64,000 nt of DNA from an uncultured Verrucomicrobiae bacterium. GTDB lineage: Bacteria; Verrucomicrobiota; Verrucomicrobiia; Limisphaerales; Palsa-1400. Position numbers and translations under genes: made by a program. Below, piece by piece: positions 669 through 34,016 of the stretch. The notes beneath the pieces are model-generated. The model saw nothing but the letters and a program-made list of their open reading frames with translations. It did no database searches and was not told where the DNA came from. The stretch lies in contig CAVWZG010000002.1 in assembly GCA_963759415.1 (NCBI GenBank), positions 259,131 through 323,130 on the forward strand, read 5' to 3'. Numbering within the stretch: position 1 is the first letter of the stretch; every line of letters starts with the position of its first letter.

Positions 669-3470
669 TCACCGATAGGATCCACGATAGAATTTATAGC
701 TGGACACGTTGGTGTCGGTAAACGTGAATGGCGAGGCATTGGTCACCAATGGAACCCAGGCCACCATGTTCGGGGATGCCTGGATGGAATAGCTGAGGGT
801 GGGCACGCCAGTCAAAGTAACCGTAAAATGCTGGTTGGTATAGGATACGACTGTCAATATGGGCACAGCCGAGGAATAGACCGATAGCGTGACATTACTG
901 CTGATTGCCGTGCCGGCGATGTTGGTCACGGTCACAGAATAGGTGCCGGCACTGTTGGTGGTCACGCTGTTCAGTGTCAGTGTCGAATTGGTCGCGGATG
1001 GCAAATTGGTGTCGCTCAAGTGCCATTGGTAGCACAGCACGCCTCCAGTGGCAGCCACGCCGAAATTCACCGTCTGCCCCGCCACGGCGGTCACGTTGAC
1101 TGGCTGAACCGTGATTGCCGGAGGCACAGCCACCGTCAAGGTGGCAACCTTGCTGGTTTGAGTGCCGCTCGGATTTACCACAACCACCTGATAGCTGCCG
1201 CCATTGTTGGTGGACACGTTGCTCAAGAAGATGAATCTGTTGGTGGCATTGGCCATGTTCGTTCCATTAAGCAACCATTGATAAGAGAACGGCGTCGCGC
1301 CGTTGACATCCACACTAAAGACCGCGGATTGTCCTTGAGGCACTGTCAGGCTGACGGGTTGGCTGGTAATCAATGGCGCCACCGTCACCAGCAAGGCCGG
1401 CGCACTGGTCACACTGCTTATCGAATTGCTGACCACCACGGTGTAGCTGCCCGCGTCACTGTCGGTGATATTCGTCAGGGCCAGGCTGCCATTGGTGTCG
1501 CCATAAAGCGGAGCGCCATCCTGGTACCATTGGTAGCTCAAGGCGGGCGTGCCCGCGGCGCTGACCGAGAATGTGACCGTGCCCCCCTCCATGTTCGTCA
1601 CCCCCACCGGCTGCACCAGAATCGCCGGATCCTGCACCACCAGCAAAGCGTTGCTGCTCTCCACCGTTCCCGCCGGGTTGCTGATGGTCACCGCGTAACT
1701 GCCCTCATCCGCCGCCAGCACGCTGGCCACCGTCAGCACGTTGCTGGTCGAGCCGGAAATGTTGCCGCCATTCGTCAACGCGTTGGTCGCCGTGACCGTC
1801 ATCTTATACCATTGATAGCTGAACGGCGCCGTGCCCGTGTTGGTCACGGCAAAGGTCGCCGTGGTGCTGGCGTTGTTCGTCTGGTTCTGCGGCTGGCCCG
1901 TGATCACCGGCCCGTCAATCACCGTCAAGCTCGCCGGATCGCTGGTCGCCGTCGCGCTGGCATTGCTCAACACCACGCTGTAACTGCCCGCGTCGGCGTC
2001 CTGCACGTTCGTCAAAACCAAGCTCGCCGCCGTGGCCCCGGTTATCGGCAAGACTCCCTGATACCACTGGAAGGTGGCCGCGCTGCCCGTGGCCGTCACG
2101 CTGAACGTGGCCGTCGTTCCGGCGTTGTTGGTCCGGCTCTGCGGCTGGCCCGTGATGACCGGCGGAACAATGACCGTCAACGTGGCAGACGGAGTGCTGG
2201 TCACCATGCCATACTGGTTGCTCACAACCACCGTGTAGCCAGTCGCATCCGACGGCCCGGCGCTTCCAATGGCATACGTGGATGTAGTGGCCCCGCTGAT
2301 GGCAACCCCATTCGAATACCATTGATAGTGCGGTGCTGTCCCGTAGGCCCCCACGCTAAAGCTGGCGGGATTGCCCACGTTGACCGTCAGGCTGGCGGGT
2401 TCATTGGTAATGATGGGATCGATCACCAGCAAAACAGCGTTGCTGCTGCTGGCCACTCCGGCCTGATTGCTGGCCACCAGCATGTAATAGCCGTCGTCGG
2501 CCCCCAGATTATTGGAAAGCGTCAGCACGTTGCTCAACGAGCCGGAAATACTGCCGCCATCGCTCAACGCGTTGGTGGCCGTGCCGGTCATCTTGAACCA
2601 CTGATAGGCGGGAGGCGTGCCGCTGACGGTCACGCTGAAAATCGCTGTCGCCCCGGCATCGTTGGTGAGGCCAACCGGCTGGCTGGTGATGGCCGGCGGG
2701 ACCACGACCGTCAAGGTCGCGGGACCGCTAAGGACGCCACCATCCGCGTTGGTGATGGCCAACTCATAGGTCGCCGCGTCGGCAGGAGTCACACTGCTCA
2801 AAATAAGCTGCCGGGAGGTCGCTCCGGGAATGCTCGCTCCATTCTTGGTCCATTGATAGGTGAAGGGCGAGGCCCCGTTGATGCCAACGTTGAAAATGGC
2901 CGTCGCGCCCTGGTTCAGCGTCAGGCTGGCCGGGTGACTGACAATCACCGGAGGATGAGTAATCGTCAGGGTCGCCGTGGCGCTGGCCATCTGACCAACG
3001 GAATTGGAGACCACGACGGAATAATCGCCCGCGTCGCTGTCTAAAATCTCGCTCAAAGTCAAAGAGCTGTTGGTTTCTCCCGGCAATTCAAAATCGTCCT
3101 GCTGCCACTGATAAGAAAGCGGGGTGGTTCCGACTGCCACAACCGAGAAGACCACGGTGCTGAAAAGGCTGTTGGTCACACTGGCTGGCTGGCCGGAGAT
3201 GAACGGGTCAATCACAACCAATGTTCCGTTCGTCGTGGCGGATCCCGCGGCATTGGTGACCGTGACCGCATATTCAGCCTGATCGGCTGCCAACACATTG
3301 CTGATCGTGAGCACATTGCTGGTTGCACCGAAGATATTGCCCGCGTCGCTCAACAAATTGGTTTCCGTGGCAGTCATTTTTGTCCACTGGTAACTGAACG
3401 GCGCTGTACCTCCGCTGACAATCACGGTGAAGGCGGCCGTTGTGGTTGCATTGTTGGTCTGGCTTGGTGG
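669..3470. repeat. Copy 1 of a ~2.8-kb direct repeat (Ig stalk plus C-terminal domain); copy 2 lies 6886 bp downstream
   Basis: 1501 ccataaagcggagcgcc matches 8387; stop codons at 669 and 7555 are also 6886 bp apart; the core is nearly identical and the edges are more diverged. Confidence 0.95.
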
Positions 3471-6400
3471 CTGGATGCTGGAAATTACAGGCGGCGTCGG
3501 AAGGACGTCAATCCCGACAGTCTTTGTGGCTGTCGTATAATCAGTGGTGTCGTTGGGCGTAAACGTGACCGAAAGGGATCGATTGCCGCCGACAGCCAGG
3601 ACGACGCCCGCCGACGGATTGTAGGCAAACGTGCCGGGCACGTTGGCGGTGGCATTGAGTTGGATGGAACTGAGAGCCGTGCCGTCGGTGATGGGGGCAG
3701 GATTCGCCCAGGTGATAACGGGCGTCGCCTGCTGCACGTTAATGGTCGTTGTGGTGGTGACGGTAGCATAGGCGTTCGTGTCGGCGGGCGTGAACGTGAC
3801 CGAAAGGGTTTGACTGTCGCCAAGACCCAGGGATGTGCCCGTCGGTGGAGTGTAGGTGAACGTGCCGGGCACATTGGCGGTGGCATTGAGTTGCCCGGAA
3901 CCGAGCGCTGTGCCGTAAGAGATGGGGGAAGGACTCGCCCACGTGATCACCGGCGTGCCCATGACCTCAATAACACCGGCGCCAGCGTTGTAGAGACCCG
4001 ACAACGACCATGATAGGCCGGCCGGCAGAGCCGGCGGGTTCGTAACGGTGAAGGTGTTGGTCGGCGCAGATTGCCAGTTGGCAATGGTCCACTTGTCACC
4101 TGCCGCCCATTGAGTCATGCCGTTCGGATTGCCGATATTGAGCACGGCGCCGCTGCTCAATGACACTGGAATTTGCGCGTTAAGCTCGCCGGCAGCCTGC
4201 GCATTGCCGGTGTTGTCGCCGTTGCCTGCGCCGCTGTAAAGGTTCACGGTCAGCGAGCCACCCGAGGTAATCTGCATGTAGCCACCGGTGCTGTTGGTAG
4301 TGGCAACAGTGAAGGTTTCACCTCCGCCCGTGGAGGCATTCGCGCCCGTATTGTTGCCGGGGTCGCCAACAACCAAACTGCCATTGACGGTGACGCCGCC
4401 GATGTTGGTGGTCATAATGCTCCCCAATCCGCACAGCGTGGTGCCGGAGTTCACCGTCACGGGGCCGGCGGGCAGGCCGGAACCGGTGGTGTTATCGAGC
4501 TGCATTGTGCCGGCTTGTATGGTGTTCGTGCCAAACATGCTGCTGCTGTCGCCAGTGAACACTTCCGTTCCGAGGCCGGTCTTGAAAAAGCTAAGTGCGG
4601 CAACGACGCCGGCGGTTGGAGCTCCACTCAGATATCCTTTGAAGACGGCGGTTTGGTTCGCGTTGGTGGGTCCGACGCTAATTGCTCTAAAGTTGGGGGG
4701 AGTGCCGCCGAAGTTCAGGACTATGGTCGGGCTGCCGTTGGACCCAGTCAAGGCCGCAAAGGTGACATTGAGGCCAGCGTAGCCCGCAACGCTCAACGAT
4801 GAGGTTTGATCCAAATCAAGATTCGGCAGCGGGCTGGGAGCGTTGTCCACCTTCAGCGATGTGCCGCCGTTGACGGCGATGTAGCCGTTGGTGAGTGAAA
4901 TTGCGCCTGTCATTTCAACGATATTGCCACCGGTTACCGTCACATTCCCATTGCTGCCAAAAACAGAGCCAGTGGCGAGACCCGCGTTAGCTGAGTTGAT
5001 GGTGATATTGGTGAAGAAGTTGATGGTGCTCACGTGGCCTGAGTAGCCTGGTGCGTTTCCGATCGTAACAGAGCCGGTGCAATTGGTGGTGACCGTCACC
5101 GGGATGCTCAGAGTCACTCCAGCAGAGAGCACGCTGACGGATGGACTGTTGTTGTAGGTGTAGCTGTCGCCCAGCGTCACGCTACTCGCGCCAAATGCAG
5201 AGGGGTTGCCAGCAACAAGGGTGCCTGCGCTGATTACAATACCGCTCCCAAATGTGTTGGCTGTGTTCAAAGTCAACGACCCGGCCCCTTGCTTGGTGAG
5301 GGTCCCCGTGGCACCGATAGTTTGTCCGGTGCTTGAGGAGAACACATAGGGATTCCCCGCGCTGTTGCTGACCACGAAGCTTGCGGGAGTCATGGGACCC
5401 GCGACGTTGACACTGAATTGGCTCACACCAGTGTCAGGAAAGAGGACAGGGTCGGCGCTCTGGAAGACGGTGGACTGCGATGGATTGAGGGCGTAAACCC
5501 AATTCTGATCGAACAGATTCCAGTTTGCGCTCTGAGATCCCGTCCAGACAAGATTGGAGGGGCTTCCCGAGGGGAAAAACTGGACCTGGATCACGTTCGG
5601 GTTATTGGTGATGAGGCTTCCAGCGACAAAGCCGCTAGGCCCGACCACGTTCATGCCCGTGCTGCCGGGGGCATGGGGGGTGAACGTGCCGCTGTACGCT
5701 ATCAGCGTGTAAGGGACACCGGTTGCAACCTTGCTCTTCCAAGCCCAGGTATAGGCTGTCGCCGTGCCCTGGCTCAGGTCCACGTTGCCGCACACGTTGA
5801 TCAAGGCGTTGGAGCCATTGCCGGGGGGACCGCTGCCGGCGGTGGTGCTGGCGCCATTGTTGGTACCGAGAACGAAATTCAAGGTGCCCCCTCCGGGAAC
5901 GAACGTGGGGTAGATGCGTGGTGAGTGGGCATACTCAAAAGCAGAGTTGGTAATAGTCAACGTGCCGATCACCAGGGAAGTCGAGGAGCCGCCAGCCACA
6001 TTCAACGTGCCACCATTCGTGGGTGAGCTGCTGGGATTGGGAGTTGCGAGGGCAAGACTCCCAATGATATCGGCGTTGCTGCTGGTGCCAGTGGAGCCGG
6101 CGTTCAGCGTATAAGGCGCGTTCGTGCCGATGGTATAGGGACCAACAGAGGGGGAGTTGGTGTCGTTCCAACTCACATCCAAAGTGGCGCCGCTGGCATC
6201 GGTGAGCGAGTAAGGGATAATCACCTGATTGCTTTGGATGATCAGCTTTGCATTGGAAGTGAGATTCCATGGGCCGTTAAGGCAATTAGTCAGGCCTTGG
6301 AAAACCCAGGTCCCAGGCCCCTTAACAGTCAGCCCAATCTCATTTGTGGGCCATAGGCCGGCGTAGATGCTATTATTCCAAGTGGCCCCAGCTACAGCAG

Positions 6401-7472
6401 TAGAACTGGCAATACTCTGCACGATGGTGTTTGTGCCGGTCGAACTGCCGCCCAACATCCAGGTAACGATGGGGTTTCCAGCCGTGCCAGCTTTAGAGCC
6501 GGGATATTCCCCAACCACAATCGGTCCGGCCCACGTCAAATTGTTGTTGTTTGGGCTGTTGTTGGACAACGTATAGTATCTGCCGGAGACACTAGCCTCA
6601 TAAAGATTCCATGCCCACAAGGCGCCGCTGGTGGCATCGGTCGTGCCGACATAACAGAGACTTTCAGCATATCCTGTCCCGGTGCTAGACCCCCCAAATC
6701 TGTCCATGACAGTGGCCGAACACGCCCCAAAGGAGGATGGTGCGCCGGCCAGGCCCATGGAGTTGAAGCACAAAGTGCCATCACAAGTGCATAACGGACC
6801 GTGGCTCTGATTCCAGGGTGAGCTATAGCAATGCCCACCGGTCCCAGTGAAGTCATTGGTCGTGCATAAAAGGTTAATTTGTTGTATGCCCGCAGAGCTG
6901 CCAGGCGTAAAAATGGCGCCGAGGCCGGTTATATAGCCCGCCAAAGTGAGAACCGAGGTACTTGTGCCGTAGGTTTGGTCGCTGCCCGTGCCATTACCAG
7001 AGATCATTATATCTGTATTGTTGTTCGTAATGGGGATTGACCAATAGTTGCTTTGGGCGGCAACAAAATTGCTTATGGCACAGTAGTTGTTTATTTGCCC
7101 GGCGCCTGTGGGACTGGCGTCGATTGTAATTGGAAGGCCAGCGATGGCGGCATTGGTGGTGTAGAACACGATGCCGTCAATCCCGCGCACGTTGACGAGA
7201 TTATTCGAGCTGTACATGATGCCATACTTGGTCTGGGCGGCAAAAATCAGCACTTGGCCGCTGGTGGCGGTGGTGGATGGCACAATGCCGCCGCTCCAAT
7301 TGGCCGTGTCGCTCCAGTTGCTGCTGGTGGCGCTGGCACCGGTCCAGGTGTAGGCGGTGAGCGCCGCCGACACCGGACTGGCCGATGCGAGCAGTAGGGT
7401 GGCCGCGGCGGTGAGCAGGGTGGCGCGCAAGATGAGCCGATTAGTTACAGAATGGTTGCGAATTATTGTCAT
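669..7472 (-). CDS. 2267-aa secreted surface protein: autotransporter-associated beta-strand repeats, two MBG-like domains, tandem Ig-like domains, C-terminal 'FYR' domain
   Basis: Signal peptide (LLTAAATLLLASASPVSA); PATR repeats (TLTKQGAGSLTLNTANTF); TPVITWAxPxPIxxGTAL repeats; repeated PxITxQP...YQW...DxGxYxVVVSN Ig units; no C-terminal beta-barrel. Confidence 0.88.
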   Translation of the reverse strand: MTIIRNHSVTNRLILRATLLTAAATLLLASASPVSAALTAYTWTGASATSSNWSDTANWSGGIVPSTTATSGQVLIFAAQTKYGIMYSSNNLVNVRGIDGIVFYTTNAAIAGLPITIDASPTGAGQINNYCAISNFVAAQSNYWSIPITNNNTDIMISGNGTGSDQTYGTSTSVLTLAGYITGLGAIFTPGSSAGIQQINLLCTTNDFTGTGGHCYSSPWNQSHGPLCTCDGTLCFNSMGLAGAPSSFGACSATVMDRFGGSSTGTGYAESLCYVGTTDATSGALWAWNLYEASVSGRYYTLSNNSPNNNNLTWAGPIVVGEYPGSKAGTAGNPIVTWMLGGSSTGTNTIVQSIASSTAVAGATWNNSIYAGLWPTNEIGLTVKGPGTWVFQGLTNCLNGPWNLTSNAKLIIQSNQVIIPYSLTDASGATLDVSWNDTNSPSVGPYTIGTNAPYTLNAGSTGTSSNADIIGSLALATPNPSSSPTNGGTLNVAGGSSTSLVIGTLTITNSAFEYAHSPRIYPTFVPGGGTLNFVLGTNNGASTTAGSGPPGNGSNALINVCGNVDLSQGTATAYTWAWKSKVATGVPYTLIAYSGTFTPHAPGSTGMNVVGPSGFVAGSLITNNPNVIQVQFFPSGSPSNLVWTGSQSANWNLFDQNWVYALNPSQSTVFQSADPVLFPDTGVSQFSVNVAGPMTPASFVVSNSAGNPYVFSSSTGQTIGATGTLTKQGAGSLTLNTANTFGSGIVISAGTLVAGNPSAFGASSVTLGDSYTYNNSPSVSVLSAGVTLSIPVTVTTNCTGSVTIGNAPGYSGHVSTINFFTNITINSANAGLATGSVFGSNGNVTVTGGNIVEMTGAISLTNGYIAVNGGTSLKVDNAPSPLPNLDLDQTSSLSVAGYAGLNVTFAALTGSNGSPTIVLNFGGTPPNFRAISVGPTNANQTAVFKGYLSGAPTAGVVAALSFFKTGLGTEVFTGDSSSMFGTNTIQAGTMQLDNTTGSGLPAGPVTVNSGTTLCGLGSIMTTNIGGVTVNGSLVVGDPGNNTGANASTGGGETFTVATTNSTGGYMQITSGGSLTVNLYSGAGNGDNTGNAQAAGELNAQIPVSLSSGAVLNIGNPNGMTQWAAGDKWTIANWQSAPTNTFTVTNPPALPAGLSWSLSGLYNAGAGVIEVMGTPVITWASPSPISYGTALGSGQLNATANVPGTFTYTPPTGTSLGLGDSQTLSVTFTPADTNAYATVTTTTTINVQQATPVITWANPAPITDGTALSSIQLNATANVPGTFAYNPSAGVVLAVGGNRSLSVTFTPNDTTDYTTATKTVGIDVLPTPPVISSIQPPSQTNNATTTAAFTVIVSGGTAPFSYQWTKMTATETNLLSDAGNIFGATSNVLTISNVLAADQAEYAVTVTNAAGSATTNGTLVVIDPFISGQPASVTNSLFSTVVFSVVAVGTTPLSYQWQQDDFELPGETNSSLTLSEILDSDAGDYSVVVSNSVGQMASATATLTITHPPVIVSHPASLTLNQGATAIFNVGINGASPFTYQWTKNGASIPGATSRQLILSSVTPADAATYELAITNADGGVLSGPATLTVVVPPAITSQPVGLTNDAGATAIFSVTVSGTPPAYQWFKMTGTATNALSDGGSISGSLSNVLTLSNNLGADDGYYMLVASNQAGVASSSNAVLLVIDPIITNEPASLTVNVGNPASFSVGAYGTAPHYQWYSNGVAISGATTSTYAIGSAGPSDATGYTVVVSNQYGMVTSTPSATLTVIVPPVITGQPQSRTNNAGTTATFSVTATGSAATFQWYQGVLPITGATAASLVLTNVQDADAGSYSVVLSNASATATSDPASLTVIDGPVITGQPQNQTNNASTTATFAVTNTGTAPFSYQWYKMTVTATNALTNGGNISGSTSNVLTVASVLAADEGSYAVTISNPAGTVESSNALLVVQDPAILVQPVGVTNMEGGTVTFSVSAAGTPALSYQWYQDGAPLYGDTNGSLALTNITDSDAGSYTVVVSNSISSVTSAPALLVTVAPLITSQPVSLTVPQGQSAVFSVDVNGATPFSYQWLLNGTNMANATNRFIFLSNVSTNNGGSYQVVVVNPSGTQTSKVATLTVAVPPAITVQPVNVTAVAGQTVNFGVAATGGVLCYQWHLSDTNLPSATNSTLTLNSVTTNSAGTYSVTVTNIAGTAISSNVTLSVYSSAVPILTVVSYTNQHFTVTLTGVPTLSYSIQASPNMVAWVPLVTNASPFTFTDTNVSSYKFYRGSYR
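3490..3960. repeat. Two ~231-bp tandem MBG-like domain repeats
   Basis: gtgccgggca(c/a)..ttggcggtggcattgagttg at 3631 and 3862; protein TPVITWA..P..I..GTAL...QLNATANVPGTF occurs twice. Confidence 0.8.
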
Positions 7473-7554: not shown

Positions 7555-10356
7555 TCATTGATAGCAGCCACGATAGAACTTGTGGCTGGATGCGTTGGTG
7601 TCGGTAAACGTGAACGGCGAGGCATTGGTCACCAATGAAGTCCAGTTGAACAGGTTGGAGGATGCCTGGATGGAATAGTTGAGGGTGGGCACGCCGGTCA
7701 AGGTCACCGTGAGTTGGCTGTTGGCGTATGACACGATTGTCAACACCGGCACAGCCGAGGCATAGACCGATAGCGTGACATTACTGCTGACCGCCGTGCC
7801 GGCGATGTTGGTCACGGTGACGGAATACGTGCCAGCACTGTTGGTGCTGACGTTGTTCAGTGTCAGTGTCGAATTGGTCGCGGATGGCAAATTGGTGTCG
7901 CTCAAGTGCCATTGGTAGTACAATGCGCCTCCAGTGGCAGCCACGCCGAAATTCACCGTCTGGCCCACCAGGGCGGTCACGTTGGCCGGCTGAACCGTGA
8001 TTGCCGGAAGCACAGCCACCGTCAAGGTTGCAACCTTGCTTGTTTCAGTGGCCGTCGGATTTACCACAACCACCTGATAGTTGCCGCCATTGTTGGTGGA
8101 CACGTTGCTCAAGGAGAGAATTCTGTTGGTTGCGCCAAGGATATTTGTCCCATTAAGCAGCCATTGATAAGAGAACGGCGTTGCGCCGTTGACACCCACG
8201 GCAAAGTTCGCCGATCGTCCTTGAAGGATTGTCAGGCTGGCGGGTTGGGTGAAAATCAATGGCGCCACCGTCACCAGCAAGGCCGGCGCACTGGTCACAC
8301 TGCTTATTGAATTGCTGACCACCACGGTGTAGCTGCCCGCGTCACTGTCGGTGATATTCGTCAGGGCCAGGCTGCCGTTGGTGTCGCCATAAAGCGGAGC
8401 GCCGTCCTGATACCATTGGTAGCTCAAGGCGGGCGTGCCCGCGGCGCTGACCGAGAATGTGACCGTGCCCCCCTCCATGTTCGTCACCCCCACCGGCTGC
8501 ACCAGAATCGCCGGATCCTGCACCACCAGCAAAGCGTTGCTGCTCTCCACCGTTCCCGCCGGGTTGCTGATGGTCACCGCGTAACTGCCCTCATCCGCCG
8601 CCAGCACGCTGGCCACCGTCAGCACGTTGCTGGTCGAGCCGGAAATGTTGCCGCCATTCGTCAACGCGTTGGTCGCCGTGACCGTCATCTTATACCATTG
8701 ATAGCTGAACGGCGCCGTTCCCGTGTTGGTCACGGCAAAGGTCGCCGTGGTGCTGGCGTTGTTCGTCTGGTTCTGCGGCTGGCCCGTGATCACCGGCCCG
8801 TCAATCACCGTCAAGCTCGCCGGATCGCTGGTCGCCGTCGCGCTGGCATTGCTCAACACCACGCTGTAACTGCCCGCGTCGGCGTCCTGCACGTTCGTCA
8901 AAACCAAGCTCGCCGCCGTGGCCCCGGATATCGGCAAAACTCCCTGATACCACTGGAAGGTGGCCGCGCTGCCCGTGGCCGTCACGCTGAACGTGGCCGT
9001 CGTTCCGGCGTTGTTGGTCCGGCTCTGCGGCTGGCCCGTGATGACCGGCGGAACAATGACCGTCAACGTGGCTGACGGAGTGCTGGTCACCATGCCATAC
9101 TGGTTGCTCACAACCACCGTGTAGCCAGTCGCATCCGACGGCCCGGCGCTTCCAATGGCATACGTGGATGTAGTGGCCCCGCTGATGGCAACCCCATTCG
9201 AATACCATTGATACTGCGGTGCTGTCCCGTAGGCCCCCACGCTAAAGCTGGCGGGATTGCCCACGTTGACCGTCAGGCTGGCCGGTTCATTGGTAATGAT
9301 GGGATCGATCACCAGCAAAACAGCGTTGCTGCTGCTGGCCACTCCGGCCTGATTGCTGGCCACCAGCATGTAATAGCCGTCATCGGCCCCCAGATTATTG
9401 GAAAGCGTCAGCACGTTGCTCAACGAGCCGGAAATACTGCCGCCATCGCTCAACGCGTTGGTGGCCGTGCCGGTCATCTTGAACCACTGATAGGCGGGAG
9501 ACGTGCCGCTGACGGTCACGCTGAAAATCGCTGTCGCCCCGGCATCGTTGGTGAGGCCAACCGGCTGGCTGGTGATGGCCGGCGGGACCACGACCGTCAA
9601 GGTCGCGGGACCGCTAAGGACGCCACCATCCGCGTTGGTGATGGCCAACTCATAGGTCGCCGCGTCGGCAGGAGTCACACTGCTCAAAATAAGCTGCCGG
9701 GAGGTCGCTCCGGGAATGCTCGCTCCATTCTTGGTCCATTGATAGGTGAAGGGCGACGCCCCGTTGATGCCAACGTTGAAAATGGCCGTCGCGCCCTGGT
9801 TCAGCGTCAGGCTGGCCGGTTGACTGACAATCACCGGAGGATGAGTAATCGTCAGGGTCGCCGTGGCGCTGGCCATCTGACCAACGGAATTGGAGACCAC
9901 GACCGCATAACCACCCGCGTCGCTATCGGAAATATCACTCAGAGTCAAAGAGCTTCCGGTTTCTCCCGGCAAGTCATTTCCGTCCTGCTGCCACTGATAA
10001 CTTAACGGCGCGGTGCCGACGGCCACAACGGAGAAGACAGCGGTGCTGCTGAGGGCGTTGGTAACACTGACCGGCTGGACAAAAATGGCCGGATCAATCA
10101 CAACCAATGTTCCGTTCGTGGTCACGGATCCCGCCGCGTTGGTGGCAACGACCACATATTCAGCCTGATCGGCTGCCAACACATTGCTAATCGTGAGCAC
10201 ATTGCTGGTCGAACCAGAGATGTTGCCCATATCGCTCAACAGATTGGTTGCCGCGGCGGTGATTTTTGTCCACTGGTAACTGAACGGCGCGGTGCCTCCG
10301 CTGACAATCGCGGTGAAGGTGGCCGTTGTGGTTGCATTGTTAGTCTGGCTCGGCGG
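7555..10356. repeat. Copy 2 of the ~2.8-kb direct repeat
   Basis: Aligns to 669..3470 at offset 6886. Confidence 0.95.
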
Positions 10357-18997: not shown

Positions 18998-21763
18998 CTA
19001 CGGAAATCGCAACCGGTAAAACATCGCCGATCCAGAGGCAGTCATGTTGACCGTGTTGGTCGTTCCGTTCACTGTTACCGCGTTAGTTAGCGAAGTCCAT
19101 AGCACCGGAGGGGCCAGATCGGCGGTCTGCTGGACAATAAAGCCTGCCGGACTTGTCGGCCAGGATACCGAAATCGTCGTCGGGACTACATTGCCGCCGC
19201 CGGATTGAAAAACGCTGAGTTTCGGGGAGGATAGCACTTGCAAATCCGCGCAAAATTCCCAAGTGGTGTTGGCGCTGTCCGTTGCTGTGGCCGAAAGATA
19301 CCTGCCCGGCGGAACCCCGACATTTAAGGTCAGGCCAAAAATGGCCTGGCCGTTAGCGCCGGTTGTGATGTTAGTCGAACCGATGTATGTCAAACCTTCC
19401 CCATAACCAGAGGCGTTCGGCGCCACGTTCTCGTAAAACTGGATCAGGAACGGCCAATTGGCATGGGTGCTCAAAGAGCCTTTAATGCCCGTTGTGACAC
19501 CGTCGCTGACCGCCTCCGTCAAGGCCACCAAGTTGGAAGTGTTCAGTCCAGTGCTTGCTCCGATAACAATTCCAAGGTTTCCGTTGGAAAAGATGCCGTT
19601 GCGACTGATAAAGTTGCCCAGACATCCGGCGCGTATCCGCACGCCGTCGTAGGAGGACGAGCGCACAAAGGCGATGCGATTATCCCCGGCCGGGGACGAA
19701 CCACCGACAATGTTACTGCTGGCGGTGTCGGAGAAATCAATGTTGTGCAACTGATTACCCAAAGCGCTGGAACCATTCGCCTTTGTGCCGATGAAATTGC
19801 CCTGAATGGCGTTGAAATTTGCTCCGGGATCACCCACGGAAATGCCTTCCTGGAAATTCCCGGAAATAAGATTGCCGGCCCCGGCCACCGCGCCTCCAAT
19901 GGTGTTGGAGCCTGAGCCGTAAAGGTAGATTCCCCCGTTTAAGTTGCCCAGGACGGTGCTGCCCGTGACGTCAGTTCCGATATGGTTTCCCTGGATCACC
20001 GTCGCCGTCGCCGCGCCTCCACCCACTGTCACTCCGCTGTCGCCATTGGCCGAAATCACGTTGCCGGCTCCCGCGGTGGCGCCGCCGATGGTATTGGCAG
20101 GGGCGTTCGAAATGGCGACGCCCGCGTAACCATTGGCCAAGGCTGCCGCCCCGGTGATGTCGGTGCCGATGTAATTGCCTTCGACCAGATTGTTCGTGGC
20201 GGTTGTGCCGTAGATGAAAACGCCGTTTTGGGAATTGCCTGAGATGACATTTCGCAGCGTGGCTGTCAGATCGCCAATGGTATTGCCTGGAACTGCGATG
20301 TAAACGCCTGCCTGGGAATTGCCCACCGCCTTTTTCCCTGTGTAATCTGTGCCAATCAAGTTGCCCTGCACGAAATTGGCGCCCCCGCCGGAATCCACCA
20401 ACAGCACGCCATTGCCGCTGTTGCCAGATATGACATTTCCACCGTTGGTTCCTCCAACCATGTTCCCTGCCGCACCATCTATCGTGATGCCATCGTAGGT
20501 GTTGGGCAAGGCGTTGCTTCCGGTGGCATCAAGGCCAAGAAAGTTGCCCTGAACCAGATTGCCGGATGCGCCGGCATAAATGATCCAGACCCCGTTTTGC
20601 TTGTTGCCGGAGATGATGTTGCCCGCTCCAGCGTTGGTCCCGCCAATCGTGTTGCCGGGAACCCCATTGACGACCACGCCCGTGCCTTGGTTGGGGATCG
20701 CCAATTTCCCCGTAACATCAGTGCCAATGTAATTGCCCAGCACGGTATTGCTTGTCGCGCCGGTGATCAAAATATTGATACCTTCAGCGCCATTCCCAGA
20801 GAGAATATTTCTTGCGCCGGCGGCGGTTCCTCCCACCACGTTTCCAGCCACGCCATAAATCGTCACACCGTCTTGAGCATTCCCGACGGCCCCGGTCCCG
20901 CTGGCATTCACGCCAATGTAATTGCCCTCAATAAAATTGCCCGTTGCTCCGGAGGTCAGAAGATAGATGCCACTTTGGCCGTTGCCCGAGATAACATTGC
21001 CCGCGCCGACAACAACCCCTCCAATGGTATTTCCAGGCGCGCCGGAGATTTCGAGGCCATTGTGAACATTGCCCAGGCTCTTGAGGCCCGTCACTGAAGT
21101 TCCAATATAATTGCCCTCGATCACATTGCCGGTTGCGTCCGCATTGAGCAGAATAATTCCATTTTGGTTGCTGCCAGAAATGATATTGCGAGCCGCCGCG
21201 TTCGTTCCGCCAATGAGGTTTCCAGGCGATCCGTTGATCATAATCCCGGCCTCGCCATTGCCGTAAGCCACCATGCCGGTAACATCCGTTCCCAGAAAAT
21301 TGGCCTGAATCACGTTGCTGCCAAGCTCTTGCAGCCGAATACCGTCGCGAGGGCACCTGTTGATGGCCAGGCCACAAATCATGCTTCCTCCTGCCGTCAC
21401 CATCAATCCATCATTATTGGCTCCGATATTCGAGCCGTTGATTTCAATCAAGGGGTTTCCCGCGTAATTGGGTTCGGTGGTCCCATCAATAACCACAACA
21501 TTTGTAATCGTCGGCAAGACGGATGCCGGCCTAATAGCAAAGGGTCCGGCACCTGATATATCGAAGACAATTGTGTTTGAACCAGAGTTCCCGTTTGCGT
21601 TGAGTATCGCCTGGCGCAAGGAACCGATTCCACTGTCATTAGTACTTGATACCGTGTAAGTTGCAGCCGCAAGGTGGCCGGCGTGGATCGCCAATAAGAC
21701 ACAAAGAAAGACATGCCAATTGCGCTCAAACCAACGGTTTGGGAGCTGCCGGTCACTTTTCAT
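18998..21763 (-). CDS. Secreted right-handed parallel beta-helix repeat protein with C-terminal 'FYR' domain
   Basis: Start reassigned to ATG 21763 (MKSDRQ...VFLCVLLAIHAGHLAA signal); DSGIGSLRQAILNAN motif; repeated GNxIGG...NxISGN...GNYIGTD units. The ORF-track 5' extension overlaps the divergent gene. Confidence 0.85.
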   Translation of the reverse strand: MKSDRQLPNRWFERNWHVFLCVLLAIHAGHLAAATYTVSSTNDSGIGSLRQAILNANGNSGSNTIVFDISGAGPFAIRPASVLPTITNVVVIDGTTEPNYAGNPLIEINGSNIGANNDGLMVTAGGSMICGLAINRCPRDGIRLQELGSNVIQANFLGTDVTGMVAYGNGEAGIMINGSPGNLIGGTNAAARNIISGSNQNGIILLNADATGNVIEGNYIGTSVTGLKSLGNVHNGLEISGAPGNTIGGVVVGAGNVISGNGQSGIYLLTSGATGNFIEGNYIGVNASGTGAVGNAQDGVTIYGVAGNVVGGTAAGARNILSGNGAEGINILITGATSNTVLGNYIGTDVTGKLAIPNQGTGVVVNGVPGNTIGGTNAGAGNIISGNKQNGVWIIYAGASGNLVQGNFLGLDATGSNALPNTYDGITIDGAAGNMVGGTNGGNVISGNSGNGVLLVDSGGGANFVQGNLIGTDYTGKKAVGNSQAGVYIAVPGNTIGDLTATLRNVISGNSQNGVFIYGTTATNNLVEGNYIGTDITGAAALANGYAGVAISNAPANTIGGATAGAGNVISANGDSGVTVGGGAATATVIQGNHIGTDVTGSTVLGNLNGGIYLYGSGSNTIGGAVAGAGNLISGNFQEGISVGDPGANFNAIQGNFIGTKANGSSALGNQLHNIDFSDTASSNIVGGSSPAGDNRIAFVRSSSYDGVRIRAGCLGNFISRNGIFSNGNLGIVIGASTGLNTSNLVALTEAVSDGVTTGIKGSLSTHANWPFLIQFYENVAPNASGYGEGLTYIGSTNITTGANGQAIFGLTLNVGVPPGRYLSATATDSANTTWEFCADLQVLSSPKLSVFQSGGGNVVPTTISVSWPTSPAGFIVQQTADLAPPVLWTSLTNAVTVNGTTNTVNMTASGSAMFYRLRFP

Positions 21764-21943: not shown

Positions 21944-21998
21944 GCGCGCGAAAGATGAATTGGGTGTTCCGATCTGGGGAGAGCCGTGAGCGTATGTT

Positions 21999-22832
21999 AT
22001 GAGAACTAAATTACTGAATATTTTGTGCTTCTTGGCGGTCAGTGGAGGGTTGGCTGGAAACCAGCTTGCCATGGCCAGCGAGCCTGCTGACTTCGCGAAG
22101 ATTCTCGCTGCGACTTCTGTTGTGGAGATGCCAGCCAAAGCCGCCAGTCTGGTGGGCAAAACGGGTACTCCACAAGAGCGCAAAAATGCCGCTGTGGCGG
22201 TTGTTAAAGCGGCCGTACGGCTGAATCCGACTATCGCAGTCGCCGTGGTGGGTGCCATTTCCCAAAGCAATCCCGAGTTGGCTCCCGTTGCCGCGGCCAC
22301 CGCCGCCTCCTTGCAGCATAAGCAGCTTGCTTCGATCGCCAAGGCCGCGGCGGCGGCCGCTCCTTCGCAAGCCGGCAAAATAGTGGCCGCATTGATAAAG
22401 GAATTCCCCTCAAGCTACGCGGTTATCGCGATCTCCGCCTCCGAAGGCGCACCCTTGGCCGGCAAGGAAATTCTCGAAGTCGTTGCCGACTATGTGCCAG
22501 CATTGCAAGCCAGCATCAACAGCGCTATTGCCTCCTTCTCGTTGAGCGCGGCGCAACCCCAATCGACAAACGGCCTGTCAGTCAGTGGAACTTCTTCGAC
22601 TCAGAGATTGCCAGTATCAGCCATCTTGGAACACGCCACAGACCAGCCGGCAAGCTCTGCGCCAGTGGCCAGCGGCGTCTCCATGGCGACGCAGAACCCC
22701 TTGGCGACGAGGCCCATGCGCTCCGACGCACAGTCCTCGCCTCTGCCTGCCACTCCGACTCCGCCGATCCTGCCGCTGCCTCCCCAAACTAATCCACAGT
22801 CGCCAGGTGGGCGCAATTACGCAACGCCCTGA
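21999..22832 (+). CDS. Exported Ala-rich helical protein with Pro/Ser-rich tail, unknown function
   Basis: Signal peptide; Ala-rich pseudo-repeats (AVAVVKAAVRLNP, SIAKAAAAAAPSQAGKIVAA); ends PGGRNYATP; first gene of the export operon. Confidence 0.75.
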   Translation: MRTKLLNILCFLAVSGGLAGNQLAMASEPADFAKILAATSVVEMPAKAASLVGKTGTPQERKNAAVAVVKAAVRLNPTIAVAVVGAISQSNPELAPVAAATAASLQHKQLASIAKAAAAAAPSQAGKIVAALIKEFPSSYAVIAISASEGAPLAGKEILEVVADYVPALQASINSAIASFSLSAAQPQSTNGLSVSGTSSTQRLPVSAILEHATDQPASSAPVASGVSMATQNPLATRPMRSDAQSSPLPATPTPPILPLPPQTNPQSPGGRNYATP

Positions 22833-22882: not shown

Positions 22883-24232
22883 ATGGCATCGGTACATATC
22901 AAGCGCGGGCGCGATTTTCGCCTGGTTGTGCCGATGAGTCATGGCTCCGCAATGTGCTTCCAAAGAACGCGCCCCCTTCTTGCTACTCTGTCTTTTATCG
23001 GGAGTGTCTGTGCGCTGCTCTTGTATTCCAAACCCGCCCTCTGCCAGGAGGCCCTCCGCATGTCCACCGCCGCCGATCAAACGGCCGAACTCGAAAAGAA
23101 AACCAGCGTTCCTGATTACTACAACTTAAGTCTTGGTCCCGTAAAACTACGTTTCCAAGGCGAAATGGGCGTCGCTTTTAACGATAATGTTAATTATTCT
23201 GACGTCAATCGCCAGGCAGATATAATCCTCAGTCCCGGCGTCAATGTCAGAGCACTTTGGCCGGCGACCCAAGAAAACACCCTCCAATTCTCCACCGGCA
23301 TCGGATACGAGGACTATCTGAAAACCACCAGCCTCAGCCACCTCTATGTCACTCCGGATTCCGCGCTTGTTTATAAAATGTACGTGAGTGATTTTGTGAT
23401 CAATTTTCACGATCGTTTTTCGCTGATCGAGGATGTCGCGCAGACTCCGACGATCAGTGGAACCGGCGAGTTCGGCCAACTGGAAAATGCGGCAGGCGTT
23501 GGCCTGGACTGGAACCTTTACAAAAAGGTCATTTCCTTCAGTTACGACCATGATTTGATGCTGTCCACCACCCCGAATTTTGATTACGTTGACCACGGCT
23601 CCGAATTATTCACCCTGCGCGCCGCCTCTCTTTTTCACGGGACGAGCAGGCTTGGCCTTGAATTGGGAGGCGGGGTCACAACCTACGACCAACCGGTGCT
23701 GAACAACAACACGGAGTTTAGCGCCGGCCCCTATTATCAAGGGCGGCTCACCGAGCATATACGCGTCACATTGTCGAGCGGTTACGTTTCCTACATGTTC
23801 TCTCCCAACGGCCACACCAATACTCTGATCAACACCGCCAATGAGGCCGGCAACATCAGCGGATATTATGGGGACCTGTCCCTGACGCACCAAGTCAACA
23901 CCTGGTTCAATCAAACCTTATCCGCAGGCCGCCAACTGCAATTGGGCATCACGGCAAACCTCGTGGATCTCTATTACGTCCGATACCAGAACAATTGGAG
24001 TTTCATTAGGAAAGTTAACATCACATCCCAGCTTCTCTATGAGCATGGCACGACATCTGAAGGGGTTCTGCAAATCCTTGATATTTACGGCGGTGGCGCC
24101 GGCCTGACCTATAATTTCACGCAGAAACTTGCCGGCAGCGTGATTTATAGCCTGCAGGTGAAAAAATCCAACCCGTCATCCTTTGATTATTTCCAGAATC
24201 AGCTTGTTTTCGACTTCAAATACAGCTTCTAA
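22883..24232 (+). CDS. Outer-membrane beta-barrel protein associated with polysaccharide export
   Basis: FNDNVN motif near the N-terminus, alternating amphipathic strands, C-terminal FDFKYSF BAM-type signal; abuts the OPX gene; start uncertain. Confidence 0.8.
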   Translation: MASVHIKRGRDFRLVVPMSHGSAMCFQRTRPLLATLSFIGSVCALLLYSKPALCQEALRMSTAADQTAELEKKTSVPDYYNLSLGPVKLRFQGEMGVAFNDNVNYSDVNRQADIILSPGVNVRALWPATQENTLQFSTGIGYEDYLKTTSLSHLYVTPDSALVYKMYVSDFVINFHDRFSLIEDVAQTPTISGTGEFGQLENAAGVGLDWNLYKKVISFSYDHDLMLSTTPNFDYVDHGSELFTLRAASLFHGTSRLGLELGGGVTTYDQPVLNNNTEFSAGPYYQGRLTEHIRVTLSSGYVSYMFSPNGHTNTLINTANEAGNISGYYGDLSLTHQVNTWFNQTLSAGRQLQLGITANLVDLYYVRYQNNWSFIRKVNITSQLLYEHGTTSEGVLQILDIYGGGAGLTYNFTQKLAGSVIYSLQVKKSNPSSFDYFQNQLVFDFKYSF

Positions 24233-24891
24233 TGGTGCTGTTTATGCGCATTTGTCTGTACATTTTGGTTTGGACCGCATGGGCGGCGTCGATTCTGGCG
24301 CAATCGCCCGGCAATACCAACGCTGTCCCGTCCCTAATCCTCAATGTCGGCGGCTCTTACGTGCTGGATGATAAGCATTTATTGGAGCCTGGCGACAAAA
24401 TCAGCTTCCAGATTATCGAGGACCGGGATCCGGTCCGGAGCCTGATAGTGGCCGATTCCCGCGAGTTGGATGTCCCGTACATCGGACGTGTCTCGGTGGT
24501 GGACAAAACGTGCAAACAGTTGGCCAAGGAACTCAAGGGGCTTCTGGAGAAGGAGTACTATTATCGCGCAACTGTCATTATCGGCCTCGATTCGGTCAAC
24601 AAGGTGCGCGGAAAGGTTTACATTATGGGGCAGGTTCGCACCCAAGGCCCGGTCGATATGCTCTTCGACGAAAGTCTCACCGCCGGACAGGCTATTCTGC
24701 GCACAGGCGGCTTTCTTGATTTTGCAAACAGGAGCAAAGTCAAAGTCACCCGTAATTCCGGCACCGGCAGCGCCAGCCAAACGTTTGAAATCAACATGAT
24801 CGACGTGTTGGAGAAGGGCAAGGCGGACCAGGACATCGTTTTGGAGCCTGGGGACTTGATATTCGTGCCGACAAGAACGGTTAACTTCTAA
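24232..24891 (+). CDS. wza: Short OPX/Wza-type polysaccharide export protein (Poly_export plus SLBB)
   Basis: LEPGDKISF...LDVPYIGRV; VYIMGQVRTQG; AILRTGGF; DIVLEPGDLIFVP; no lipobox and no C-terminal OM helix. Confidence 0.88.
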   Translation: MVLFMRICLYILVWTAWAASILAQSPGNTNAVPSLILNVGGSYVLDDKHLLEPGDKISFQIIEDRDPVRSLIVADSRELDVPYIGRVSVVDKTCKQLAKELKGLLEKEYYYRATVIIGLDSVNKVRGKVYIMGQVRTQGPVDMLFDESLTAGQAILRTGGFLDFANRSKVKVTRNSGTGSASQTFEINMIDVLEKGKADQDIVLEPGDLIFVPTRTVNF

Positions 24892-24897
24892 TAGCTC

Positions 24898-27075
24898 ATG
24901 GACGAACGAATGGAACAACAACCTGGAGCCGAGCACCACAAGCGAATCAATGTGGCGACCCGCTTTTTCAGCCGTCTCTACCGGTTGACAAATATTCTTC
25001 GGGCCAAATGGTGGATTCTGGTCTTAACCATCGCTCTGGGTCTTGGAATTCAGTTATACCTGCTCTCGACTGCCCCGCCCTCTTTCCAATCCGTAGGGCG
25101 GATGATCGTGAGTGTAAAACTATCGCTGCCCAACGGATCCGCTTACTCCGAAGAATTGAACAACTTCTTCGGCACGCAAACGGCCTTGATGCAAAGCGAC
25201 TCGGTTTCGAACCGCGCCCTGGTCCGGCTGCAATCACAGAACCTCGGCCTTCACCCGGTGCCCGTCCATATCCAGGTGGCAATCTCCCCCAAGACGAGCA
25301 TTTTTAATCTGCACGCCATAGGCGCCAATCCAGATTATGTCCAGGCGTATTTGCTGGCCTGCATGGAGGAATATATCAACCTCAAAAAGGAAATGCGCCA
25401 GCAGGCAACCGACACCACGAAATCCGGCATCATAGAAGAACTCACCTCTCTGAACGTCGAATTGCGGAAGGGCAAGGAAGATTTGGTCAATTACGAATCC
25501 AGCAACAGCGTGGTCTTCTTGCAGGACCGCGGAAACAGCGCCGGCAACTACTTGTCCTCCCTGACCCAACAGCATGCCGATCTGAAATCGGAACTCCAAT
25601 TGCTCAATATGCTCACCTTGGACCAGAACGTGGAGCGGGAACAAGGGCTTGCCCGGCAGAGTCTGGCCTCAACGCCCTCACCGCTAAAAGCGGCAAATCC
25701 TGGAGGGGACAATTCTACTGCCAGTCCGCCGACGGATGATGCCACGGCCTCGGACCACAGCAACGCAGGCCTGGTGGGTTCGGAATCCGAATACTTGAAA
25801 GCCAAACAGCAAATCCTGCTCCTAAAAGCGGAACGGGATGAGTTGGGTGAGTTTCTTCGCCCAAAGCATCCCAAGATTATTGCCTTGGAAGAGGATATCG
25901 CTCACAAGGACAAACTGCTGGAGATCTTCCGTCAGCAAACTCAAGGGCAATTGGAGAACAGGAAACACACACTGGAACTACAAATTCAGAACTGTGAGGG
26001 GGAAATCAAGGTCTGGGAGGCGAAATCACTGGAAATCAGCAAGAAGATGAGCGACTACCTGTCGATCAAGGAGATTAACCAGCGGCTGCAAAGCCTCTAT
26101 GACAGCCTGCTGACCACCGAACGCACATTGGACGTGGACCGGCAAATCAGTCAGGAGAGCGTCGCCATTCTTGAGCCGGCTTCCCCGGCCTCGGCTGCCC
26201 CTCGCGAAGCTTTTCAACACCTGAGTATCGCCGGATTGCTTGGCTTGGCCTTGGGAATCGGCATCTTGATGTTTTTGGACCGGTTGGACGACAGGCCCAC
26301 TTCCTTCGCCGAGGTGGAAGAAATCTTTGATGAACCGCTCTTGGGCCAAATTCCTCTGGAACATGCGAAAAACAAAAAGGCCGGCGTTCCCGTCATTCAA
26401 GCGGAGGATGACCGCCACGCCTTGGTGGAAGCCAACCGCAATCTTCGCTCCTCCATCGTCTTCATGGCCTCTCCCACAAAGCCTCCCAAGACGATCGTTC
26501 TAACCAGCGCCATTCCCGGAGACGGCAAATCCATGACCTCCACCAATCTGGCCATCACCATGGCGCGTTCCGGCTCGAAGGTTCTGCTGGTGGATGCGGA
26601 TTTGCGCCGTGGCGGCCTGCACAAGTCTTTCTCGCTTCCAGCCGAGCCAGGTTTCTCGGACGTGTTGAGCGGGCAAATCCACTGGTCCAAAGCCGTGCAG
26701 CCAACTTCAATTTCAAACCTTGATCTCCTCCCACGCGGGCCGCTTCCATCCCACCCCGGCGAACTGTTCGCCGCCGCTTTCCTGGAAAAGTTAATCAAAG
26801 AAGTGGCCGGCAATAAATACGACTACATCTTGTTTGACACGCCCCCGGTCATGGCCGCGGACGACGTTTCCAATCTGGCGCCTTTTGTGGACGGAGTCAT
26901 CATGGTCATCCGATGCGGATACACTTCCGGCCGGGTTGCCCGCGCCGCGTTGGATTTGATGTACTTGCGAAAAATGCATATTCTGGGCCTGGTGCTCAAC
27001 GCAGTGAGAACAAACGCCAGCGAATACTACTACTACAAGTACAAGGATTACTACGCGGCGCCAAAGACTGCCTAG
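24898..27075 (+). CDS. wzc: Polysaccharide co-polymerase / BY-kinase (Wzc family)
   Basis: Two TM segments flanking a coiled coil; Walker A PGDGKS, LLVDADLRR, ILFDTPP; C-terminal Tyr cluster EYYYYKYKDYY. Confidence 0.93.
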   Translation: MDERMEQQPGAEHHKRINVATRFFSRLYRLTNILRAKWWILVLTIALGLGIQLYLLSTAPPSFQSVGRMIVSVKLSLPNGSAYSEELNNFFGTQTALMQSDSVSNRALVRLQSQNLGLHPVPVHIQVAISPKTSIFNLHAIGANPDYVQAYLLACMEEYINLKKEMRQQATDTTKSGIIEELTSLNVELRKGKEDLVNYESSNSVVFLQDRGNSAGNYLSSLTQQHADLKSELQLLNMLTLDQNVEREQGLARQSLASTPSPLKAANPGGDNSTASPPTDDATASDHSNAGLVGSESEYLKAKQQILLLKAERDELGEFLRPKHPKIIALEEDIAHKDKLLEIFRQQTQGQLENRKHTLELQIQNCEGEIKVWEAKSLEISKKMSDYLSIKEINQRLQSLYDSLLTTERTLDVDRQISQESVAILEPASPASAAPREAFQHLSIAGLLGLALGIGILMFLDRLDDRPTSFAEVEEIFDEPLLGQIPLEHAKNKKAGVPVIQAEDDRHALVEANRNLRSSIVFMASPTKPPKTIVLTSAIPGDGKSMTSTNLAITMARSGSKVLLVDADLRRGGLHKSFSLPAEPGFSDVLSGQIHWSKAVQPTSISNLDLLPRGPLPSHPGELFAAAFLEKLIKEVAGNKYDYILFDTPPVMAADDVSNLAPFVDGVIMVIRCGYTSGRVARAALDLMYLRKMHILGLVLNAVRTNASEYYYYKYKDYYAAPKTA

Positions 27076-27117
27076 TTTCCCCCACTGCTTTGTCGCCATG
27101 GCCGGGTTGCGAAGACC

Positions 27118-28635
27118 TTAAGATTTGTGGGACAAGGAAAAGAGCGCCGCGCACAGGACGAGGAAGAGAAAGACTATGGAGTAAACTTGAAAGGGGAAAT
27201 CATAACGCGCATAAAACAGGCATCCGGCCAGAGCGGCCCAAAAAAGCGGCACCAGATGCCGGGAGCCGTGTATGCCGCGCGCCACAAACCAGTGAGAGAG
27301 GACGACAAAGAAGGCCGCCGCAATTAACACACTGCCCAGCCCGCCAAAGGTAATCAGCGTCTCCAACCAGTCGTTATGGAGTTGTTCCGGCCAATACTCC
27401 TCAGGGTCAGGCCGATAAAGTTGAAAAAGCGGTCCGAACGTGCCAGGCCCGGTTCCGAACAACGGACAATCCTCCGCCATGGGACGAGCCATCTCATACA
27501 TGCTGTTTCTGCCCGCCAATCCCGCATCAAATTCATCTTTTTCAAATCGCGGCCCCAGATCGCTCCACCCCAGGGATGCGGCAAGCCCCAATACCACCGC
27601 CACGCAAACGACGATGCCAGCTTTGGTACGGCGGTTCTCCTTATGTTGGGCGCTCCACAGGACCACGGCCACCACCACCAGGTTTGCCACGGCCACAACC
27701 GCCCCAACCCGGCTCGCGGAAATAATCGGGCATGCGGCCATGATCATGGCGCACACAAGAATCATGTGCCGGGAGCGCAGCCCAAACGTTGTGCTGTCCC
27801 GCCATCCGCGCCGATAGGCCCGCTCAAGACTCCACCATAGGCCCAACGAAACCGGCCAGAGCAGATTGAAGTATTGCGCCGCATTGGAGCGGTAGGCGAA
27901 CGGGCCGAACTGGGAAAGCGCCTGCGGGTTGTCATGCGTTGGCATGAAAAAAAGCAGGTAGGCCGTTCCATCCAGGCGCTGGAAAATGCCTTCAATGCCC
28001 AGAAGCGCGCCATTCACGCTTAAAACCCAAAGCAGCCGCCTTAAACGCTCTGGCAGGAGAGATGCCCGCCGCCCCTTTTCGTACTCCTGGCCTCGTTCGG
28101 CCATTTCCTCCGCGCTGGTTTTTCCGAGCAGCCAGTCGCGCAGCGCCCAAAACGAAAGGCCCAACGCAAGATAATTGCAAAAGGCGAACCAGGAACTGGA
28201 TTGATCATAGCTGTGGGGCAGCCAGGGAATGTAGTGGTGATACTCGAAAGTGAAGGCGTCACGATTATAGATCGATCGTGAATTCAAAGCGCTGGCCAGG
28301 CAATAACCAAGAATGACCGCAGTCAAGATCGCCAGGGCGCGGGTGAGAAAGCGTTGGGCCGAGGGCTTGCCGCCGAATTCAGATTGAATTTCGCCGCCGT
28401 GCCCGCCCCATCGCGGATTGCGATAGCCGGTCAAAAGGCGGATGGACAACTTGATCGACAACAGGAAACCTGCCAGGTACCCGGCCCCGTTCATCACCCA
28501 AATGGACCATGCTTGGGTGGTGCCGAACGCCCAAGGGCCGAAGATGACCATGAAATAAAACAGCTTTTCCGATACCGCGTCGCACACCTGGTACATCCGC
28601 AACATTCGCAACGAAAGGCTTAAGGGTCTGCGCAT
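27118..28635 (-). CDS. O-antigen ligase / Wzy_C family membrane protein
   Basis: Multi-TM; SASRVG, GTGPGTF and HNDWLE motifs. Confidence 0.85.
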   Translation of the reverse strand: MRRPLSLSLRMLRMYQVCDAVSEKLFYFMVIFGPWAFGTTQAWSIWVMNGAGYLAGFLLSIKLSIRLLTGYRNPRWGGHGGEIQSEFGGKPSAQRFLTRALAILTAVILGYCLASALNSRSIYNRDAFTFEYHHYIPWLPHSYDQSSSWFAFCNYLALGLSFWALRDWLLGKTSAEEMAERGQEYEKGRRASLLPERLRRLLWVLSVNGALLGIEGIFQRLDGTAYLLFFMPTHDNPQALSQFGPFAYRSNAAQYFNLLWPVSLGLWWSLERAYRRGWRDSTTFGLRSRHMILVCAMIMAACPIISASRVGAVVAVANLVVVAVVLWSAQHKENRRTKAGIVVCVAVVLGLAASLGWSDLGPRFEKDEFDAGLAGRNSMYEMARPMAEDCPLFGTGPGTFGPLFQLYRPDPEEYWPEQLHNDWLETLITFGGLGSVLIAAAFFVVLSHWFVARGIHGSRHLVPLFWAALAGCLFYARYDFPFQVYSIVFLFLVLCAALFSLSHKS

Positions 28636-34006: not shown

Positions 34007-34016
34007 CTGAATATAA

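Follow-up and report, generated by a model that had tools for sequence, protein, structure and literature searches.

Several bacterial systems place one short domain at the C-terminus of many otherwise unrelated exported proteins. The type A C-terminal domain (CTD; PF18962/TIGR04183) of the type IX secretion system (T9SS) is a small sandwich at the extreme C-terminus of diverse exported proteins, and PEP-CTERM (PF07589/TIGR02595) is a C-terminal tag on diverse cargo that is classically tied to exopolysaccharide (EPS) loci. Dockerins (PF00404) are also terminal modules on diverse exported cargo, and SLH, GW, and choline-binding repeats are C-terminal, often repeated modules for non-covalent anchoring. 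In the Verrucomicrobiota of soil and freshwater, the export and retention of very large surface proteins and polysaccharide-degrading enzymes are poorly known. In this study, we analyzed a stretch of 64,000 nucleotides (C2:259131-323130; hereafter, the window) in the genome of an uncultured Verrucomicrobiae bacterium (5.33 Mb, 11 contigs, 93% complete). Four genes of the window encode large proteins that end in the same module of ~70 residues.

According to its predicted model, the module is an uncatalogued self-folding domain resembling fibronectin type III (Fn3). As for its role, we see roughly even chances that it is a terminal docking or retention module that acts non-covalently after export. 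The genome holds approximately 100 copies, and in more than 80% of cases, the copy closes a large protein of several domains that is exported by Sec. After export, the module would hold its protein non-covalently at the cell surface, in the glycan matrix, or on the substrate. It would thus resemble other C-terminal and often tandem anchoring modules rather than a linear signal that is clipped off, and the polysaccharide export genes next to three of the four genes would be chance neighbors.

Distribution and terminal position of the module

The initial annotation of the window had proposed that four secreted proteins share a C-terminal pattern, and all four minus-strand open reading frames (ORFs) end as it quoted. 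We built a hold-out hidden Markov model (HMM) from 90 other copies in the genome, from which the four window tails and two close paralogues had been removed. This HMM matches each window tail at the C-terminus and nowhere else in the same proteins, and the immunoglobulin (Ig) repeats ahead of the tails of the two giant proteins score less than 3 bits. Because a model built without the window tails still recovers all four, and only C-terminally, the observation of a common tail is genuine. Two features mark the module: a Trp that never varies, placed behind an S-T-[ND]-L turn, and [FY][FY]R in the final strand. In 26 tandem proteins, conservation reaches at least 90% for the Asp that follows strand five and for the two Arg of the R-[FY]-[FY]-R strand.

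Whole-protein scans with Pfam and NCBIfam left the last ~70 residues of all four proteins uncovered. A set of 44 tails, whose alignment was also used for the order, phylum, and public protein searches described below, matched no real family in Pfam at E ≤ 10, where the best was F5_F8_type_C (PF00754) with two of the 44 tails at E 1e-4. In NCBIfam at E ≤ 1, the same tails gave single chance rows only. A literature search across titles and abstract openings, with few subscription journals among the sources, yielded no description of the module.

The genome-wide census covered all stop-to-stop frames with a length of 100 residues or more (21,587 frames; Z = 21,587 for E-values), using an HMM that was seeded with the four window tails and iterated to convergence. 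It found 96 copies in 92 open frames, which corresponds to one carrier per 58 kb on average. The position of the copies is strongly biased: 80 are C-terminal (79 end within 10 residues of the frame end and one at 12), four come directly before the last copy in a terminal tandem pair, three are partial matches in short frames, and nine lie deep inside long frames. An N-terminal signal was called by a crude rule in 66 of the 92 carrier frames, and the remainder includes fragments and frames cut by contig ends.

The cargo in front of the module is very diverse. Pfam families were sought in a random 20 of the 54 eligible ORFs with a terminal copy, and seven of these had no family. The others included BspA-type leucine-rich repeats with PKD, RCC1, Big_7, NHL, a transglutaminase core, and a PL8 lyase, as well as Kelch/glyoxal-oxidase-like, PPC, DUF11, and surface Ig modules. 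The proposal that one C-terminal domain is carried by many unrelated Sec-exported proteins is borne out by this sample.

The module is widespread in the order. The source genome has 107 matches in the profile search with the 44 tails, and 30 of 31 genomes of the same order were matched, each with between 20 and at least 150 matches; one same-order relative with a 2.6-Mb genome that is 94% complete (G026) had none. In a sample of 151 genomes of the phylum, 61 were matched. In five distant genomes of this phylum, 29 of the best 30 matches lie in closed frames, and all 29 end at most nine residues before the stop codon. Among 1.84 billion representative public proteins, 79,257 were matched at E ≤ 0.001 and 13,893 at E ≤ 1e-10, and the former count is inflated because the profile also reaches ordinary PF00041 Fn3 arrays. 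Four top scorers that were checked are canonical PF00041 arrays with ~17 bits per copy, as compared with 45-65 bits for true copies. The list of the best 150 public proteins is biased to multi-copy proteins because the scores of the copies add up; within it, 149 proteins have at least two copies, 107 have at least three, and in 122 the last copy lies within 12 residues of the end. True copies form tandem arrays of two to six. The nearest ESM Atlas clusters and the few named hits point to Verrucomicrobiota, and most hits are annotated as 'hypothetical protein'. A query with a single tail found no related locus in the genome contig collection.

Terminal copies also share a fixed end. Of the 80 terminal copies, 53 finish with Pro and 16 with Gln (69 together); the background frequency of a final Pro, taken from 3,839 other long frames, is 9.7% (binomial p = 2e-34 for the module tails). 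In 62 of 78 terminal copies, exactly five or six residues follow the aromatic pair. Public proteins with a terminal copy show the same preference, with Pro last in 65 and Gln last in 14 of 117. In the internal copies of these proteins, Pro occurs at +5 in 20 and at +6 in 39 of 228. Since internal copies are not constrained in this way, the fixed end belongs to the terminal copies and is not the remnant of a linker. C-terminal Pro resists many carboxypeptidases, and the fixed end would suit a shield against these enzymes as well as a free C-terminus that is recognized by a partner.

The terminal position and the fixed end bear on another explanation, in which the module would serve as an address tag and direct roughly 100 proteins per genome into a Verrucomicrobial export or surface-display pathway that has yet to be described. 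The folded module together with its fixed end would be read by a novel machine of the outer membrane or by a processing enzyme, and no specific coupling to the neighboring glycan locus would be involved. The position of 80 of the 96 copies here and of all 29 matches in closed ORFs of the distant genomes, the fixed distance at which terminal but not internal copies end in Pro or Gln, and the diversity of the cargo are consistent with this explanation. However, tandem arrays and internal copies are unexpected of a secretion signal, and the analysis turned up no candidate for the machine. The initial annotation had likened the module to the sorting CTDs of the T9SS. The part of that proposal which concerns diverse Sec-exported cargo and a terminal position holds, whereas a pure signal does not agree with a module that is folded, repeated in tandem, and sometimes internal. 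We consider an address tag unlikely, and the docking or retention module remains our preferred explanation.

Predicted fold and relation to fibronectin type III domains

The structure of the gene 4 tail was modeled by AlphaFold2 from the alignment of 44 tails, giving a six-stranded sandwich with a mean predicted local distance difference test (pLDDT) score of 86.4. With this model, Foldseek returned nothing at E ≤ 0.001; pectate lyase PelI, through its Fn3 domain (E 8e-3, TM 0.68), and an Fn3-like protein from C. thermocellum came out on top. The list from VIA-align, a fold search independent of Foldseek, consists mostly of Fn3 domains at Z 7-8.2, where Z 7-8 is middling by the tool's own note.

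Fn3 (PF00041) and the module model have six strands in common (A, B, C, C', E, and F), along with a core pattern of Trp/Tyr and an F strand that is aromatic. Remote homology also shows in the sequence profiles: the module profile reaches whole PF00041 arrays at E 1e-105 to 1e-71 and, against PDB sequences, matches neuroglian Fn3 at E 0.01. In the opposite direction, PF00041 matches none of the 44 module tails even at E ≤ 10. The two also appear to differ in architecture: the module is predicted to have six strands, and Fn3 is a seven-stranded A-B-E/C-C'-F-G sandwich. The end of the module model aligns to residue ~74-82 of the 90-100 residues of Fn3, leaving ~15-20 C-terminal Fn3 residues unmatched; therefore, the last strand of the module would correspond to the Fn3 F strand, and the seventh strand would be missing. 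In addition, the module prefers the last position and has the fixed Pro/Gln end.

The six-stranded form does not look confined to terminal copies. The model of a two-module protein (P0081; pLDDT 83.8) has six strands in each module, so the form looks intrinsic and not peculiar to the C-terminus. A sandwich that lacks its seventh strand might be completed by a donor strand from the linker that follows it or from a partner. The linker of the two-module model contributes no extra strand, a result by which the donor-strand idea is neither borne out nor refuted. A predicted complex of two copies of the tail scored 0.00 against a mark of 0.42, which speaks neither for nor against self-association.

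Some local sequence likeness also exists to the CBM32 chitosan-binding module (PDB 2rv9 and 4zxe), which the module profile matches among PDB sequences at E 2e-5 over ~59 of 136 residues. The Y-x-[IV]-x-x-S...W turn is common to both. CBM32 and F5_F8_type_C (PF00754) are, however, jelly rolls of ~130 residues, unlike the six-stranded module of ~70 residues.

A further explanation starts from the resemblance to Fn3. The module would be purely structural, an Fn3-type spacer or end cap without a specific partner, its terminal position would reflect a history of domain shuffling, and its Pro/Gln end would guard against carboxypeptidases. The Fn3-like fold, the remote likeness to canonical Fn3 arrays, the existence of tandem arrays, and the internal copies amid other sandwich modules are all in keeping with a spacer. 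On the other hand, more than 80% of carriers have the module in terminal position across the phylum, which is unusual for spacer domains, and the polar and charged positions (the Asp and both Arg) are as strongly conserved as those of the core. We find a partnerless spacer possible but doubtful.

The docking or retention module draws its support from tandem copies whose last member sits at the C-terminus, from the diverse cargo, from the replacement of the module by a T9SS CTD or a dockerin on related cargo (see below), and from the likeness to CBM32. Five points weigh against it. First, the nine copies deep inside long frames lie amid PKD and InlB-B-repeat modules, as an ordinary spacer would. 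Second, the agreement with known folds is of middling strength. Third, the fixed end would suit a sorting tag, recognized by its free C-terminus, no less than it would suit docking. Fourth, the public list from which the frequency of tandem copies was taken favors multi-copy proteins. Finally, docking, as proposed here from sequences and models, would require a ligand or partner, and none emerged from the analysis.

Genes of the window and the polysaccharide export locus

The four genes, their terminal modules, and the neighboring polysaccharide export genes are listed in Table 1. The initial annotation had assigned the shared tail to the range 669-28635, which contains three of the tails; the fourth protein (55815-59711) lies outside it.

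Table 1 Module genes, terminal modules, and polysaccharide-related neighbors in the window
Feature	Position	Strand	Description
GT4/WecA-like gene	1-633	-	Neighbor family scan
Gene 1	669..7472	-	2267 aa: signal peptide, PATR repeat region, Ig (I-set/Ig_3) array, terminal module
Terminal RFYR-type module of gene 1	672..896	-	Last ~75 codons; hold-out HMM E 8.7e-8
Gene 2	7555..18654	-	3699 aa: signal peptide, PATR, 15 HYR stretches, Ig array, terminal module
Terminal module of gene 2	7558..7782	-	Hold-out HMM E 1.4e-8
Gene 3	18998..21763	-	~921 aa from ATG 21763: signal peptide, long repeat region, terminal module
Terminal module of gene 3	19001..19225	-	Hold-out HMM E 1.2e-5; most divergent of the four
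OM-protein-like gene	22883-24232		Locus 22883..28635, context only
OPX gene	24232-24891		Locus 22883..28635, context only
Wzc-like gene	24898-27075		Locus 22883..28635, context only
Wzy_C gene	27118-28635	-	Locus 22883..28635, context only
Gene 4	55815..59711	-	1298 aa as assembled: Sortilin/BNR (GH74-like) propeller region, Ig, NHL repeats, terminal module
Terminal module of gene 4	55818..56042	-	Hold-out HMM E 1.3e-16; copy used for structure model
Signal-peptide-like stretch of gene 4, other frame	59681..59773	-	ATG at 59773

Genes 1 and 2 encode the two giants. Their final 2.8 kb, comprising the Ig array and the tail (669-3470 and 7555-10356, minus strand), are 93.6% identical at the DNA level. 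This identity indicates, as far as sequence comparison can tell, a recent duplication or gene conversion, in agreement with the earlier view that their tails are paralogous and that the window holds three independent versions of the tail. TIGR02601 (PATR) is above the cut-off in both proteins and PF12951 in one only. The scans found no autotransporter barrel family in the four proteins, the two giants included, as had been noted from the sequence. The 15 HYR stretches of gene 2 (PF02494, E 3e-175) lie inside a bacterial protein of 3699 residues; the HYR domain is best known from animal proteins.

The body of gene 3 matched no Pfam or NCBIfam entry in the whole-protein scans. The gene was listed as 18998-22378 with a TTG start at 22378, and the ATG at 21763 yields a signal peptide. 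Starting at the TTG would add ~205 residues of low complexity (21764-22378) and create an overlap with an ORF on the plus strand (21999-22832), and the ATG is most likely the true start. Gene 4, as assembled, has an N-terminus without a signal peptide. The frame change sits in a run of C at ~59681-59692, which joins the frame from the upstream ATG, and two paralogues of gene 4 elsewhere in the genome have the signal peptide in frame. Candidate explanations for the break are an assembly error, a pseudogene, and phase variation. Thus, the statement that all four proteins carry Sec signals applies to three of them as assembled, and in gene 4 the signal-like stretch is out of frame.

The neighborhood of genes 1-3 was confirmed: the three tails lie between the GT4/WecA-like gene and the OPX/Wzc/Wzy_C cluster. 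From this arrangement, the initial annotation had suggested a domain for sorting or anchoring that might be coupled to the neighboring polysaccharide export and ligase machinery; the cargo could, for example, become attached to a glycan made by this locus. In the EPS locus, the OM-protein-like, OPX, kinase, and ligase genes resemble the XrtA/PEP-CTERM set (TIGR03016, TIGR03027, TIGR03018, and TIGR03097), below the curated cut-offs only, which would also suit such a coupling. The genome as a whole argues otherwise. It has four OPX and eight Wzy_C matches, and a module gene lies within 5 kb of one of the four OPX loci (that of the window) and two of the eight Wzy_C loci, as compared with a fraction of 0.20 for random positions. 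The nearest module genes of the remaining OPX loci are 23, 34, and 95 kb away. Three or more module genes within 25 kb occur at 4.7% of random positions. Because proximity is near random and two of the three neighboring module genes are recent duplicates, we judge the adjacency to be due to chance. Coupling to the glycan machinery is thereby largely refuted and very improbable, and the claim that the module is tied to the polysaccharide export locus should be dropped.

There is no exosortase in the window; two other OPX loci (on C6 and C8) adjoin exosortase genes. Elsewhere in the window, a secretin gene (34079-35431, minus strand) adjoins a gene of the extracytoplasmic function-type sigma-70 family (32585-34021) with a long C-terminal extension. 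A protein of 699 residues (46438-48537, minus strand) has an MlaA lipoprotein domain at residues 99-301, and its other ~400 residues have no Pfam family.

Comparison with known sorting and anchoring systems

The homologues of gene 4 allow the module to be compared with other C-terminal domains on the same cargo. Among 86 homologues of its GH74-like N-terminal region, 10 carry the module by HMM, nine of them terminally. More distant homologues of this cargo have PF18962 (four proteins) or a dockerin (two proteins) at the place of the module. Many close homologues of ~900 residues of the GH74-like region (57552-59654) end in another short conserved strand, which has an aromatic and hydrophobic pattern followed by Pro and is not scored by the module HMM. 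Judging from its sequence pattern, this strand may be a diverged branch of the tail family. The module family is probably wider than counted here because such similar-looking ends of close homologues escape the HMM.

PEP-CTERM differs clearly from the module, whose tails lack all three of its elements (the PEP motif, the transmembrane helix, and the basic C-terminal cluster) and finish with a strand and five or six further residues. PEP-CTERM is rare in this genome: there are five matches, all in proteins outside the window, and three exosortases are located elsewhere. This rarity would leave room for an address tag of another kind. A swap between PEP-CTERM and the module within the genome was considered and rejected, as the five PEP-CTERM proteins show no BLASTP similarity to module carriers. 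The two giants also depart from type V autotransporters, having PATR repeats but no C-terminal β-barrel.

We did not identify a candidate translocon for the module proteins. Secretins are present in 147 of the 151 genomes of the phylum sample, and in the source genome, each of the five secretin genes has a module gene at less than 18.4 kb, the median distance for random positions. They discriminate nothing because they are near-universal in the sample and five genes are too few for a test of proximity, and they offer little to the idea of an address tag. The SprA/Sov model TIGR04189 had no match in the 93%-complete genome and none in the control genomes either.

An unnamed module on ~100 proteins per genome is a clear gap in the domain libraries, and a curated model would lead to better annotation of these proteins. 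The fixed Pro/Gln end of terminal copies gives simple access to the question of whether these bacteria have a system dedicated to recognizing the module.

The dockerin, which replaces the module on two distant cargo homologues, differs from it in fold and sequence, and no cohesin-like partner is known for the module. The T9SS CTD occupies the same place as the module on homologous GH74-like cargo in other lineages, a parallel that would also suit an address tag. In contrast to this shared position, there was no PF18962 or TIGR04183 hit on the whole proteins or on the 44 tails at lenient E-values, and hhalign of the tail profile against five CTDs from gene 4 homologues gave a probability of 0.4%, which tells against a T9SS-like tag by descent. 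T9SS CTDs are also absent from the fold-search lists, an absence that leaves room for structural kinship, as it does for any other family missing from them. Furthermore, the T9SS CTD is single and located at the extreme C-terminus, unlike the module with its four tandem and nine internal copies in the genome. If the module did prove to be an address tag, it would be a functional parallel to the T9SS CTD system and evolutionarily unrelated to it.

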